NCBI GenBank assembly: GCA_043799385.1
Contig: JAZDNV010000018.1
Location: forward strand, 1-57,334
Origin: Candidatus Aenigmatarchaeota archaeon
Lineage (GTDB): Archaea > Aenigmatarchaeota > Aenigmatarchaeia > GW2011-AR5
Direction of reading: 5' to 3'
DNA: 57,334 nucleotides
Both the position numbers and the translations under genes were made by a program. The notes under the pieces are model-generated. The model was not told where the DNA came from. It ran no database searches and saw only the letters and a list, made by a program, of their open reading frames with translations. Below, in pieces: positions 3,134-29,598 of the stretch. Positions within the stretch are counted from its first letter, which is position 1, and each line of letters begins with the position of its first letter.

Positions 3134-5107
3134 ATGGAACTCGTTGAATGCTTGGACGAATTCTTGAGAAAGCGATACTACAACGAGTTGCTTAAAGCCG
3201 TAAAAGATGAGCAACCCTTATTAGTTGACTTCAACGACCTCGATCGTTTCGATCCGATAATCGCCGACCAGCTGCTGGAAGATCCTGAAACCGTGCTTAA
3301 CGCTTTCCAGGCAGCTGTAAAAAACGTGAACGAGAAAATAAATGTAAGGATTAGGAATATTCCCGAGCGACGTGAAATAAGAATAAGGAATCTCAGAACG
3401 AAACACCTGAACAAGTTCTGGTGCATCAGCGCAACGATAAAATCAGCGTCAGAAGTTAAGCCGCAGATATTCGAAGCGATCTTTGAATGCCCGGAGTGCG
3501 GCACGCAAGTGTCTGTCCCGCAGGACGGCAACATCGTGCAGAAGCCTGATATCTGCGAGTGCGGACGCAGGGGCGATTTCAAGTTTATTGACAAGAGGAT
3601 GCTCGACGTCCGCTGGCTGACAGGAATAGAGCCGTTTGAAGTAACCACAGGTGAGCAGCCGGGCGAGATAAAGATATTCCTAAAGGGGGATTTGACAACG
3701 CCGAAGATGCAGAAGAAGACTGACCCTGGCAGCAGATTGAAAGTCATAGGAGTTCTGAAAGAACTGTCAAAACGAATCAAAGGCCGCCTTAGCACAAAAG
3801 TTGACATGTACTTTGAAGCTAATTATCTGGAGCCGTCAGATATAGAATTTGAGGACTTGGATATCACTGATGAGGACGTGTTGAAAATACTTGAACTTGC
3901 AAGGAACCCTGATATTTATGACATACTGAAAGCGTCAATTGCTCCTGAAATATACGGCTTTGATGAAATCAAGGAATCACTCGTATTGCAGTTGTTCGGC
4001 GGTGTTCCGCATGTGCTGCCTAACGGCTCGCGCATCCGCGGCAACATACACATCCTACTCACAGGCGACCCTGGTGTTGGAAAGACTGCACTACTAAAAT
4101 TGGTTTCATCAATCGTGCCGCGCGGCCGATACGTTTCCGGCTCCGGCGTCTCTGGCGCAGGCCTTACTGCAACTGTGCGAAAGGATGAGATACTTGGGAC
4201 GTGGGTACTTGAAGCAGGCGCATTGATTTTGTGCAATAAAGGATTGATCGCTATTGACGAATTTGACAAGATGAGCAAGGATGACCAGATAGCGATGCAC
4301 GAAGCAACGAGCGTCGAAACGGTGAGCATAGCAAAGGCAAGCATAATCGCTACGCTGCCTGCGCAGACGGCAGTGCTTGCCGGAGCGAACCCGAAGCTGG
4401 GACGATTCGATCCGTTCCTGCCGATACTGGAACAGATTAGTATTCCTGAAACTCTGATGACGCGATTCGATTTGAAATTCGCGCTTCGCGACATACCAGA
4501 CAAGACCGTTGATGAAAGGCTTGCAGAACATATAATAGTGGCGAGAACAACGCCTGATGCTGTAAAACCCATGATAAACGTAAATCTGTTGAGAAAGTAT
4601 ATTGCTTATTCAAAGAAGATAGAAAAGATGGAATTATTAGCAGAAACGGCACAGCTATTAAAGAATTTCTACATTGATATGAGAACAAAGTACACAAGCG
4701 AGGAAGCAAAAACCGTCAGCATAACACTGAGGCAGTACGAAGCATTGCTGCGGTTGGCAGAGGCGTCTGCAAAAATAAGATTAGAAGACCGCATAACAAT
4801 GAGTGATGCGGAGCGGGCGATACGCCTTATGAAATTTTCGCTCTCGCAGCTTGCCATGGAGCCTGGAACAGGAATAATAGACATTGACCGAATTGAATCC
4901 GGGATAACTGCAACGAAAAGAAGAAAGATTGGAATCGTCCTCGAGATAATCGAGAACCTGCAGAAAGAATCCAAGGAAGTCGCGAGAGAAGACATTAAAG
5001 CATCGTGCGAAGAGCAGGGCATTGACGACGCAGAGGATATACTTGAAAAGCTAAAGCGTGAAGGCCTTATATTCGAGCCACGAGCTGGCTTTGTGAGAAA
5101 AGTTTGA
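3134..5107 (+). CDS. mcm: MCM replicative helicase
   Basis: Zn finger CPECG...CECG, Walker A GDPGVGKT, IDEFDKM, TRFD arginine finger and C-terminal winged helix. Confidence 0.97.
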   Translation: MELVECLDEFLRKRYYNELLKAVKDEQPLLVDFNDLDRFDPIIADQLLEDPETVLNAFQAAVKNVNEKINVRIRNIPERREIRIRNLRTKHLNKFWCISATIKSASEVKPQIFEAIFECPECGTQVSVPQDGNIVQKPDICECGRRGDFKFIDKRMLDVRWLTGIEPFEVTTGEQPGEIKIFLKGDLTTPKMQKKTDPGSRLKVIGVLKELSKRIKGRLSTKVDMYFEANYLEPSDIEFEDLDITDEDVLKILELARNPDIYDILKASIAPEIYGFDEIKESLVLQLFGGVPHVLPNGSRIRGNIHILLTGDPGVGKTALLKLVSSIVPRGRYVSGSGVSGAGLTATVRKDEILGTWVLEAGALILCNKGLIAIDEFDKMSKDDQIAMHEATSVETVSIAKASIIATLPAQTAVLAGANPKLGRFDPFLPILEQISIPETLMTRFDLKFALRDIPDKTVDERLAEHIIVARTTPDAVKPMINVNLLRKYIAYSKKIEKMELLAETAQLLKNFYIDMRTKYTSEEAKTVSITLRQYEALLRLAEASAKIRLEDRITMSDAERAIRLMKFSLSQLAMEPGTGIIDIDRIESGITATKRRKIGIVLEIIENLQKESKEVAREDIKASCEEQGIDDAEDILEKLKREGLIFEPRAGFVRKV

Positions 5108-10296: not shown

Positions 10297-10697
10297 TTAT
10301 TCCACCCGATTGATTTTACAAGCTTTTCTATTGTAATGAAATTTGTCTTGATCTCTTTTTCCATATTGACTGATTCCTTGCCTTTGAATTCGTCCGGAAC
10401 AGAAACATAAACACGCAATTTCTTGAAAGCTTTCCTTCCCTTCAGTGTCTTGTACGGCATCATTCCACGAATCGCACGACGCACGAATAATTCAGGCTTT
10501 CTCGGAAAGAAAGGACCATGCTGCGGCGAACCCTTCTTTAGCCTTTCCAGGTACTTTACAACCGTATTCTTCGGGTCGCCTGTTATTATTATTTTCTCGG
10601 CGTTGATTACCGTAACTTCATCGCCGCTCAAGAGTTTCTTGGCTGCGTAACTTGCCATTCTGCCGAGAACTGCATTGTTTCCATTTACAATAATCAT
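10293..10697 (-). CDS. rpl13: 50S ribosomal protein L13 (uL13)
   Basis: LGRMAS, GPFFPRKP and RGMMPYK. Confidence 0.97.
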   Translation of the reverse strand: MIIVNGNNAVLGRMASYAAKKLLSGDEVTVINAEKIIITGDPKNTVVKYLERLKKGSPQHGPFFPRKPELFVRRAIRGMMPYKTLKGRKAFKKLRVYVSVPDEFKGKESVNMEKEIKTNFITIEKLVKSIGWNK

Positions 10698-11029
10698 ATC
10701 AATCTCGCCTTTTCATTTGTTTCCAGCAAATCATTTATTGTTAACACCTTGCCGCCAACGACTTTAATCTTTTCCGCTGCCTGCTTCGAGAACTGCCATG
10801 CGTATATCGTCACGGGCTTTGTTATCTCGCCGCTGCCAAGGACTTTGCCTGCCACGACGACTTTTTCATTGTCTTTGCAATTATTGTCTACGTCGCTCAG
10901 ATTCATGCTAATTCTGCTCCTGCTCGGCCTCGATAACCGTTTGGCTATTTCTTTGCATACATCGCTCTTTGATTTATTCAGAGCCAGTATCAACTTTTTC
11001 AGTTCTATGTTCTCTGTTCCGTGTTTCAT
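10694..11029 (-). CDS. rpl18e: 50S ribosomal protein L18e (eL18)
   Basis: VVVAGKVLGSG and FSKQAAEKI. GGTGA SD precedes ATG 11029. Confidence 0.95.
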   Translation of the reverse strand: MKHGTENIELKKLILALNKSKSDVCKEIAKRLSRPSRSRISMNLSDVDNNCKDNEKVVVAGKVLGSGEITKPVTIYAWQFSKQAAEKIKVVGGKVLTINDLLETNEKARLI

Positions 11030-11040
11030 TCTATCACCAT

Positions 11041-11131
11041 AGCTTTGCACAAAAACCTGGCTATCGTCTTTTTGACGATAGCCTAACGTCGATGGACATC
11101 ATACAGATGTCCATCACTTTTGTGCAAAGCT
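11041..11131. mobile_element. MITE-like element, family A, copy 1
   Basis: Perfect 14-bp TIR (AGCTTTGCACAAAA / TTTTGTGCAAAGCT), 9-bp direct repeat TATCACCAT at 11032-11040 and 11132-11140, and two internal hairpins. Confidence 0.8.
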
Positions 11132-11143
11132 TATCACCATGAG

Positions 11144-11355
11144 TGCCGGGGATGGGAGATTCCAGTCTTTTCTTTTCCAGGGTTTTCTTTTTTGAAAAGA
11201 AAAGCCTTTTTGAACCCACGCAGCGACTAACGCACAGGATGTCTTCTTTTTTTCTTTCGTGTTCTTTTGATAAAGCTTTTCTTTCAAGAAAAGCTTTCTT
11301 AAGTCCTGCCCCTTTGACCATTCAAGGTTCAGCAAACTGACTTGGGTACCCCGGC
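11144..11355 (-). tRNA. tRNA-Leu(UAA) with three introns (D-loop, 37/38, 59/60)
   Basis: Removing 11321-11338, 11241-11297 and 11158-11208 gives an 86-nt cloverleaf: GCCGGGG/CCCCGGC acceptor, CAGGA-CTTAAGA-TCCTG anticodon arm, long variable arm, GTGGG-TTCAAAT-CCCAT T arm. Sits at the conserved position between rpoD and rpl18e. Confidence 0.88.
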
Positions 11356-11397
11356 ATTTATAAATCTTATGAAGTCAATCTTAAAAATTTATCAGAA

Positions 11398-12183
11398 TTA
11401 CTTCACTTCTTTCCTGACTTCCTTTATGAACCCTAATGCACGTTTCTCCAGGATATCCAATGCCTTGCTCAATATGCCAACTGCGTTCATCCCTGAAATG
11501 GATTCTATCTTGAATATGAAATTATTTTCTTCGCCAGCGACCGTGACTGCTTTTTTATCGCATACTTCCATACAACGAAGGCACAAATTGCAATTCGCTG
11601 CACCAGCAAGTCCGATTTTTCCATCTTTTTTCTGGAATATGTTCTTCGGGCATACGTCAATGCAATTACCACACTCGTCGCATTTGTCGCTGTAAAACCT
11701 TACTACTGGAACGTTCCTGTAGCCAACGGTTGCTGCCTGATATTTTGCATGGTCTCTGCCAAAACCGAGTTGAGCGAATGCTCTAAACTTTATTTTATGC
11801 CCTTCTAGAAGTTCGACAATCGGAATATCAGGATCAAACGGTGTGACGTCACCATCAAATATCAGATCGCTCGCTTTTACGATGCAGGGGCCCTCTTTCT
11901 CCAACGTTGCAACGACCTCGCATCTGCTGCAGCCCTTGCCTTTGCATTTGCATTCGCTCTTCATCTCAAATATGTCTGGAAACACGAGCGGTATCAGACC
12001 TAGACGATGCGCAATTACCTCGTCGAAAAGCCCTGACGAATTATACTCAAATTCAACGTATTCTATCGCAAGCACAGGCATTTCAGAAATCATTATCCTT
12101 CGCAATGCATTCGCAAAAGCAGGGTCGCAGTCAAGAATAAATTCCATCCTTCTGTCTGATTTTTCCAGTATCTTAAGATTCAT
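11398..12183 (-). CDS. rpoD: DNA-directed RNA polymerase subunit D (Rpo3) with ferredoxin-like Fe-S domain
   Basis: FANALRRIMISE, AHRLGLIPL, HAKYQ and two CxxCxxCxxxC motifs. Confidence 0.96.
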   Translation of the reverse strand: MNLKILEKSDRRMEFILDCDPAFANALRRIMISEMPVLAIEYVEFEYNSSGLFDEVIAHRLGLIPLVFPDIFEMKSECKCKGKGCSRCEVVATLEKEGPCIVKASDLIFDGDVTPFDPDIPIVELLEGHKIKFRAFAQLGFGRDHAKYQAATVGYRNVPVVRFYSDKCDECGNCIDVCPKNIFQKKDGKIGLAGAANCNLCLRCMEVCDKKAVTVAGEENNFIFKIESISGMNAVGILSKALDILEKRALGFIKEVRKEVK

Positions 12184-12192
12184 AAAAATCAC

Positions 12193-29487: not shown

Positions 29488-29598
29488 TGCGACCGCTGGG
29501 ATTTGAACCCAGGTCATCAGCTTTCTTTTTCTTGATGGAACTTCTTTTTTAAAGAAGGTCCTTGGAAGGCTGAGGTCCTACCACTAGACTACGATCGC
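29488..29598 (-). tRNA. tRNA-Gly(UCC) with a 40-nt intron at 37/38
   Basis: Removing 29523-29562 gives a 71-nt cloverleaf: GCGATCG/CGGTCGC acceptor, TCAGC-CTTCCAA-GCTGA anticodon arm, CTGGG-TTCAAAT-CCCAG T arm. Confidence 0.92.

Follow-up and report, generated by a model that had tools for sequence, protein, structure and literature searches.

In the Thermoproteales, single tRNA genes can carry up to three introns bounded by bulge-helix-bulge (BHB) motifs, located at the 37/38 site and at non-canonical sites (Sugahara 2008 and Fujishima 2010, as given by Fujishima & Kanai 2014, PMC4033280). The available portion of that 2014 review gives three introns as the archaeal maximum per tRNA gene and treats related introns at different positions and in different genes as the mark of intron transposition in this order. 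For several DPANN lineages, the accessible part of Kaneta et al. 2018 (PMC5829648) describes alpha4-type EndAs with an L3 (Nanoarchaea/ARMAN-2-specific) loop in the C-terminal region, and associates L3-loop DPANN with a larger number of disrupted tRNA genes and with predicted tRNA sets that are incomplete. The same part of that text contains no Aenigmatarchaeota tRNA gene or intron, the name appearing only where 'DPANN' is expanded, and our literature search, which was limited in coverage, returned no description of tRNA introns from Aenigmatarchaeota. The locus reported here, from an archaeon of that group, is a tRNA-Leu(UAA) gene with multiple BHB introns, of a kind known, as far as the accessible portions of the sources go, from Thermoproteales, Nanoarchaeum equitans, ARMAN and Asgard archaea.

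The stretch of DNA that we analysed, hereafter the window, is 57,334 nt long and corresponds to contig C4 of assembly G000 (786,014 bp, 31 contigs, 42.9% G+C, 91% complete). It contains a 212-nt tRNA gene divided into four exons by introns in the D-loop, the anticodon loop and the T-loop (Table 1). The original prediction had given the correct coordinates and had left the strand unstated; the gene lies on the minus strand, and reading 11144-11355 on the plus strand yielded nothing tRNA-like. The 7-nt 5' strand of the acceptor stem begins at 11355, and its exact complement ends at 11145 on the minus strand, followed by an A at 11144. Scripted excision of 18, 57 and 51 nt leaves an 86-nt product that ARAGORN identifies as tRNA-Leu(taa) and for which the minimum free energy (MFE) structure (ViennaRNA, -35.0 kcal/mol) is a complete class II cloverleaf, with an acceptor stem of 7 bp, a D stem of 3 bp, an anticodon stem of 5 bp plus one, a variable stem-loop and a T stem of 5 bp. 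Isotype and anticodon are as claimed, and the intron sizes, intron positions and product length put forward in the original prediction are exact to the base. Class II tRNA-Leu features of the spliced product include the variable stem-loop (3 bp with a 5-nt loop), the anticodon TAA and A73; a long variable arm together with A73 constitutes the archaeal identity elements for leucine.

Table 1 Features of the tRNA-Leu(UAA) locus and of other loci discussed in the text. Plain coordinates refer to the window; those with a contig prefix refer to other contigs of the same assembly.
Feature	Location	Strand	Description
tRNA-Leu(UAA) gene, 212 nt	11144..11355	-	G1 = 11355; discriminator A73 = 11144; CCA not encoded
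Exon 1, 17 nt	11339..11355	-	Acceptor 5' strand, positions 8-9, D-stem 5' strand, D-loop to ~position 17
Intron 1, 18 nt	11321..11338	-	D-loop, directly 5' of G18G19 (after ~position 17); strict hBHBh'
Exon 2, 23 nt	11298..11320	-	Remaining D-arm, anticodon-stem 5' strand, loop to position 37
Anticodon TAA	11301-11299	-	Within exon 2
Intron 2, 57 nt	11241..11297	-	Canonical 37/38 site; relaxed BHB
Exon 3, 32 nt	11209..11240	-	Position 38, anticodon-stem 3' strand, long variable arm, T-stem 5' strand, T-loop 54-59
Intron 3, 51 nt	11158..11208	-	T-loop 59/60; near-canonical BHB with one purine-purine mismatch
Exon 4, 14 nt	11144..11157	-	Position 60, T-stem 3' strand, acceptor 3' strand, A73
rpoD	11398..12192	-	Rpb3-like RNA polymerase subunit with 4Fe-4S motifs; upstream neighbour, synteny anchor
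rpl18e	10694..11050	-	Ribosomal protein L18e; downstream neighbour
tRNA-Gly(UCC)	29488-29598	-	40-nt 37/38 intron
tRNA-Gly(GCC)	C10:35857-35987		37/38 and T-loop introns
tRNA-Ile(GAU)	C21:10237-10437		D-loop and T-loop introns
tRNA-Gln(CUG)	C25:33007-33167		37/38 and T-loop introns
tRNA-Ser(GCU)	C25:72318-72450		T-loop intron
tRNA-Ser(GGA)	C2:4008-4207		D-arm and T-loop introns
tRNA-Asp(GUC)	C14:20220-20371		37/38 and T-loop introns
EndA	C11:18471-18962 (L001:1474-2133, minus)		Single ORF
RtcB	C23:29642-30274		Truncated by contig end

Standard BHB geometry has a 4-bp helix (H) between two 3-nt bulges, each of which is cut after its second base. The D-loop intron, which had been called a clean BHB, follows this geometry strictly, with an h of 3 bp, all four H pairs (CAAG/CTTG), an h' of 4 bp and the bulges TCA and AAT. 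The claim of three central pairs plus a purine mismatch for the 37/38 and 59/60 introns was also borne out, the mismatch being A.G in both. At intron 2, h is the anticodon stem (6 bp), H has three of four pairs together with the A35.G mismatch, and h' has 0 bp; in the predicted fold, no inner helix closes the 5' bulge; an 11-bp hairpin opens the intron, and the next 26 bases are unpaired. At intron 3, the T stem (5 bp) acts as h, while U54-A, U55-A and C56-G make up H together with the A57.G mismatch, and h' consists of 2 bp, one mismatch and then 11 bp (the last counted by eye). Motifs are in register at all six exon-intron boundaries (strict for intron 1, relaxed for introns 2 and 3), and the MFE structure of the 212-nt precursor retains the acceptor, anticodon, variable and T helices.

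The imperfect motifs of introns 2 and 3, the former lacking an inner closing helix, speak against a functional, spliced gene, and a plain alpha4 EndA is reported, in the accessible text of Kaneta et al. (PMC5829648), to be unable to cut substrates of this kind. They are also one argument for regarding the locus as a pseudogene, that is, a former tRNA-Leu(UAA) broken by three insertions and no longer giving rise to a tRNA. Another is that a look-up of sequence records containing the locus returned no RNA run, just DNA contigs with a word share of 0.22 or less. Against this stand exons that are intact and fold perfectly, and splice motifs that are in register at all three insertions, two of them imperfect.

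That standard scanners would miss this gene, as anticipated, holds for ARAGORN in both modes and for the Rfam tRNA model. With default settings, ARAGORN found a single tRNA in the window, Arg(GCG), and with introns allowed it found 30 genes genome-wide, none at this locus. The Rfam tRNA model at its gathering score detected two genes in the window, neither being tRNA-Leu(UAA); it gave no match to positions 10900-11600 at E<=10, and its 28 whole-genome matches at E<=1 did not include the locus. Across other Rfam families, the same region at E<=10 gave nine weak matches (Plastid-rpoB, U7 and others), all to unrelated families far below the gathering score, which we took to be chance.

We used a custom finder that parses cloverleaves de novo, permits jumps solely at BHB-like sites and demands pairing in four stems (acceptor, D, anticodon and T), leaving the variable arm unconstrained. 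Applied to the intergenic region, it recovered exactly the same three introns. Applied to 374 intergenic regions (102,286 nt with margins), it produced 238,377 raw parses, among which 3,626 passed exact-span ARAGORN, at 27 loci; this census is a lower bound, with 17 region-strands searched in part. Reversed but uncomplemented sequence served as the control (365 of the 374 regions) and yielded 78,535 raw parses, 17 of which, at 3 loci, passed ARAGORN. All 17 had four or five 'introns' and 6/7 acceptor pairs. We dropped five finder loci that resemble these false positives: four low-scoring ones with 4-5 introns and 6/7 acceptor pairs (C16:2134-2443, C10:3657-4072, C4:46379-46895 and C25:52415-53016) and one with three introns and 6/7 acceptor pairs (C30:19226-19366).

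These figures bear on whether a cloverleaf might have arisen by chance in A/T-rich intergenic DNA. The multi-intron search space is very large, as the number of raw parses indicates, but not one control parse combined three or fewer introns with 7/7 acceptor pairs, which is what the tRNA-Leu(UAA) parse has (three introns, 7/7). Moreover, synteny is conserved at the locus and the spliced exons share 76-90% identity with those of orthologues, and we attach practically no weight to a chance origin. It is likewise extremely unlikely that the gene is real and spliced in some other way. The finder did return two four-intron parses of the locus, with 91-nt products and the anticodon AAG or GAG, and both passed ARAGORN; however, they involve one extra intron and weaker motifs, score lower (31.4 versus 33.7) and destroy an anticodon arm shared unchanged by 14 of 15 orthologues, the remaining one differing by one compensated stem pair.

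The gene lies between rpoD and rpl18e within the minus-strand order S4, S11, RpoD, [tRNA], L18e, L13, S9, and the nearest named relatives of its RpoD are from Candidatus Aenigmatarchaeota genomes (45-58% identity). Between the tRNA 3' end and rpl18e (window 11059-11115) are two 10-bp inverted repeats, one of them followed on the minus strand by a T run, which may represent a terminator or processing signal. The repeats are the single result retained from a sigma-70 promoter and terminator scan, a model unsuited to archaea.

No second tRNA-Leu(UAA) was found in the 91%-complete assembly by ARAGORN with introns, Rfam or the finder, nor by a search with the anticodon-arm word of the gene, which occurs once in G000; the check for another copy suggested with the original prediction thus came back empty. 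With the genome 91% complete, the missing part could possibly hold another Leu(UAA) gene poor in introns, and an unassembled copy of this kind is a further argument for a pseudogene. It is set against the demand for the tRNA: the 595 ORFs of 150 aa or longer contain 2,454 TTA codons (11.9 per 1000 codons).

In records from Aenigmatarchaeota, Iainarchaeum and Diapherotrites, rpoD is likewise closely followed by this tRNA. Orthologous tRNA-Leu(UAA) genes of relatives (Aenigmatarchaeota and other DPANN) contain 0 to 4 introns, based on finder parses and, where marked, on reading by eye. One locus has no intron (L056). A single intron is present at 37/38 in L041, L004 (= L042), L043, L008 (= L047), L051, L007 (= L057) and L016, and by eye in L044, L045, L052 and L053, and in the T-loop only in L055. 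Two introns occur as D-loop plus 37/38 in L003 (= L046) and, by eye and with the D-loop site as in the G000 gene, in L048; as 37/38 plus T-loop in L049; and as anticodon stem plus 37/38 in L017 and L018. The three-intron arrangement of D-loop, 37/38 and T-loop is found in the G000 gene and, by eye, in L040. Four introns, in the D-arm, at 37/38, in the variable arm and in the T-loop, are carried by L009 (= L054, genome G028) and, by eye, four are also present in L006 and probably in L015 and L005; the fourth site in such relatives, besides D-arm, 37/38 and T-loop, is the variable arm or the anticodon stem. Separately, the 3' flank of the Diapherotrites tRNA-Leu at L018 (~3385-3440) contains, by eye, a hairpin and purine run like those of the T-loop introns, located outside any intron.

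Covariation was assessed in 15 distinct spliced orthologues, leaving out the duplicates L042, L046, L047, L054 and L057 and excluding L040, L048 and L005, whose finder parses were wrong or doubtful by eye. All stem cells form standard pairs (360/360), a figure that is partly circular because the finder selected parses paired in the four stems on which it insists. Compensatory two-sided changes are found at 11 of 24 stem pairs, and the variable arm, which the finder leaves unconstrained, covaries at pairs 49:57 and 50:56. Stems maintained through compensatory change, in orthologues with anywhere from no intron to four, are not how a pseudogene behaves.

Interrupted tRNA genes are common in this genome. 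ARAGORN with introns allowed reports an intron in 24 of its 30 genes. Forcing of anticodon-loop introns makes its isotype and anticodon calls in G000 unreliable, and at three loci it disagrees with a BHB-aware parse: Leu(caa) versus Pro(cgg) at C30:10851-10979, Asp(gtc) versus Ile(tat) at C11:34089-34200 and Ser(tga) versus Ser(aga) at C10:34885-35048. The finder adds tRNA genes that are missed by, or below threshold in, ARAGORN and Rfam, including six with a 59/60 intron: Gly(GCC), Ile(GAU), Gln(CUG), Ser(GCU), Ser(GGA) and Asp(GUC) (Table 1). For several of the six, no other gene with that anticodon was found.

Together with that of tRNA-Leu(UAA), the seven T-loop introns have a common design. 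In each of them h is provided by the T stem. Pairs 54-56 form in 7/7, purine 57 faces a purine and is unpaired in 7/7, and six to seven of the seven introns have the first five pairs of h', which covary, with two to three pair types each. This recurrence of one design in six other genes, several apparently without a substitute, is further evidence against three inactivating insertions, and with no second Leu(UAA) found, UUA in use and the orthologues conserved through compensatory change, the pseudogene alternative that accompanied the original prediction is not supported; we rate it very unlikely. Two features of the T-loop introns were noted by eye. Their 5' pyrimidine arm (for example in 11158-11208, and in the relatives L006 and L040) can pair in two ways: it forms a local hairpin with a nearby purine run, or it forms h' with another, similar run of purines beside the 3' splice site. 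In addition, their 3' half seems internally duplicated.

Introns of this genome are also related in sequence to one another. Among 91 pairwise local alignments of 14 introns, none of 200 mononucleotide shuffles equalled the score of any of the best 22 pairs (z up to 22), and blastn searches of the genome with the 12 introns of at least 30 nt gave matches almost exclusively at tRNA loci. The T-loop introns of Gly and Gln are 92.5% identical over 40 nt and those of Ile and Ser(GGA) 92.9% over 42 nt (blastn). Relatedness extends across positions: the 37/38 intron of Leu(UAA) matches the D-arm intron of Ser(GGA) (90.6% over 32 nt; blastn), the D-loop intron of Ile(GAU) on C21 has a 32-nt match of 90.6% identity at window 29526-29557, inside the 37/38 intron of tRNA-Gly(UCC), and the 37/38 intron of Asp aligns with the T-loop introns of Gly, Ser and Gln (local alignment).

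The pattern GTTCRAA-N4-8-YTTTCTT, which links the T-loop with the pyrimidine arm of these introns, is noisy in most genomes (controls give ~0-6 per genome), and we cite only genomes of the class with a large excess over the backwards control: 7 versus 1 in G000, 14 versus 1 in G030, 15 versus 1 in G148 and 23 versus 1 in G132. In G000, related introns occupy more than one tRNA gene and more than one position, the observation read as transposition in Thermoproteales, from which we infer that introns have moved among tRNA genes and positions here as well.

Both splicing enzymes are encoded in G000. EndA, of 207 aa, is a single ORF with an N- and a C-terminal EndA domain; PF01974 and PF02778 have one match each in the genome, both in this ORF. 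RtcB is present as well, its gene being cut by the contig end. The original prediction had envisaged an EndA of alpha-beta or epsilon type. Neither PF01974/PF02778 nor a whole-genome protein search revealed a beta or epsilon (three-unit) EndA in the 91%-complete genome; a single alpha-type EndA with an L3 insertion was found instead. An NEQ261-like beta subunit is detectable from the EndA query (3iey_B, E 2.2e-5), yet no second copy was found in G000, where the protein search matched this EndA to itself and to nothing else.

Among solved structures, this EndA is closest to the M. jannaschii alpha4 enzyme 1a79 (E 8e-37) and to 3iey_A, the catalytic subunit from N. equitans (E 7.7e-30). Its Tyr-His interval is 15 residues, 6 more than in 1a79 and gap-free against 3iey_A, and the insertion, kept in 20/20 relatives' loci, matches by its alignment the 'L3' loop of DPANN. 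Among the 31 genomes of the order, G000 included, 28 have the EndA gene, usually with a single match. Besides the usual ORF, the relatives G024 (C2:63976-64830) and G030 (C16:11661-12464), both of family f7, carry another EndA-like ORF that is longer; these ORFs (398 and 485 aa) have two matched stretches each and may be a two-unit form.

The catalytic triad of the G000 EndA is incomplete. Tyr and His are present, and the position of M. jannaschii Lys156 is Ala, within the motif R-A-R; the same Ala is found in 20/20 relatives' loci. A regex search of 120 close homologues returned Ala in 112 and Thr in 1, followed by R, K or H, the other 7 having matched at an earlier site. Lys is the rule in 147 representatives of the wider family, nearly without exception where the Tyr-His spacing is shorter, and the non-Lys cases cluster in proteins with spacings of 15-16 residues, of which 6 have Ala, 2 Ser and 5 Lys. 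Because Ala replaces the catalytic Lys156, the activity of this EndA should not be taken for granted. An endonuclease of relaxed specificity that cuts relaxed BHBs outside the anticodon loop is plausible, and the enzyme may be a homotetramer of broad specificity.

Overall, we consider it very probable, on sequence evidence, that the locus is a functional, single-copy tRNA-Leu(UAA) gene with three introns. Minus-strand transcription between rpoD and rpl18e would give a pre-tRNA of ~212 nt, in which each intron would fold with flanking exon into a BHB motif. The single alpha-type EndA, probably an L3-loop homotetramer, would cut in the 3-nt bulges at the predicted sites and RtcB would ligate the four exons, with CCA added later, to give an 86-nt class II tRNA expected to read UUA and UUG. 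The introns themselves are members of genome-wide BHB families that would have spread among tRNA genes and positions (D-arm, 37/38 and T-loop).

A broader scenario is conceivable but rather doubtful as a whole. Aenigmatarchaeota as a class may harbour mobile, sequence-conserved BHB introns that favour the T-loop 59/60 site and move to the D-arm and 37/38, reaching up to four per gene, and that are tolerated because the single-subunit EndA has a rewired active site, in which the lost Lys has been replaced in its role by a neighbouring Arg/Lys or by an L3 Lys; the internal hairpin, which is conserved and has a duplicated 3' half, may have a role besides splicing. If true, the rewired active site would constitute a new functional variant of the splicing endonuclease.

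For this genome, the gene would supply the missing decoder of UUA/UUG in a tRNA set that looks incomplete to standard tools. More generally, tRNA counts, completeness values and codon-reading inferences obtained for DPANN with ARAGORN or plain Rfam will be wrong unless BHB-aware searches are used. The T-loop intron design and the intron sequences common to several genes offer a concrete system for studying the spread of archaeal tRNA introns, and an L3-loop EndA lacking the canonical Lys provides a concrete enzyme for the question of broad specificity.

With these genes, Aenigmatarchaeota can be placed beside Thermoproteales, ARMAN and some lineages of Asgard archaea, all of them rich in tRNA introns. 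The likeness to Thermoproteales, as those are covered in the accessible sources, lies in several BHB introns per gene, non-canonical sites and similar introns in different genes. Unlike them, G000 belongs to the DPANN and has a genome below 1 Mb, it has a recurrent 59/60 intron of one design in at least seven genes, and its relatives reach four introns in the same tRNA; the Thermoproteales EndA is described, in the source text available, as (alpha-beta)2 with a Crenarchaea-specific loop, whereas G000 has one alpha-type EndA with an L3 loop. Small DPANN genomes with non-canonical introns are likewise seen in ARMAN-1/2 (epsilon2 EndA) and N. equitans ((alpha-beta)2 EndA), known for multi-intron and split tRNAs, and the L3-type Tyr-His insertion aligns with the N. 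equitans catalytic subunit 3iey_A; in contrast to both, no three-unit or beta-subunit gene was found in G000. Disrupted Asgard tRNAs, to the extent that the available source describes them, resemble those of G000 in having many introns per gene, BHB sites and a large share missed by standard annotators, and beside them G000 has intron sequences clearly common to different genes and positions. Finally, G000 fits the picture of an L3-loop EndA combined with disrupted tRNA genes drawn in the accessible part of Kaneta et al. 2018 (PMC5829648), and differs from the L3 EndAs described there in that its own has no canonical catalytic Lys.
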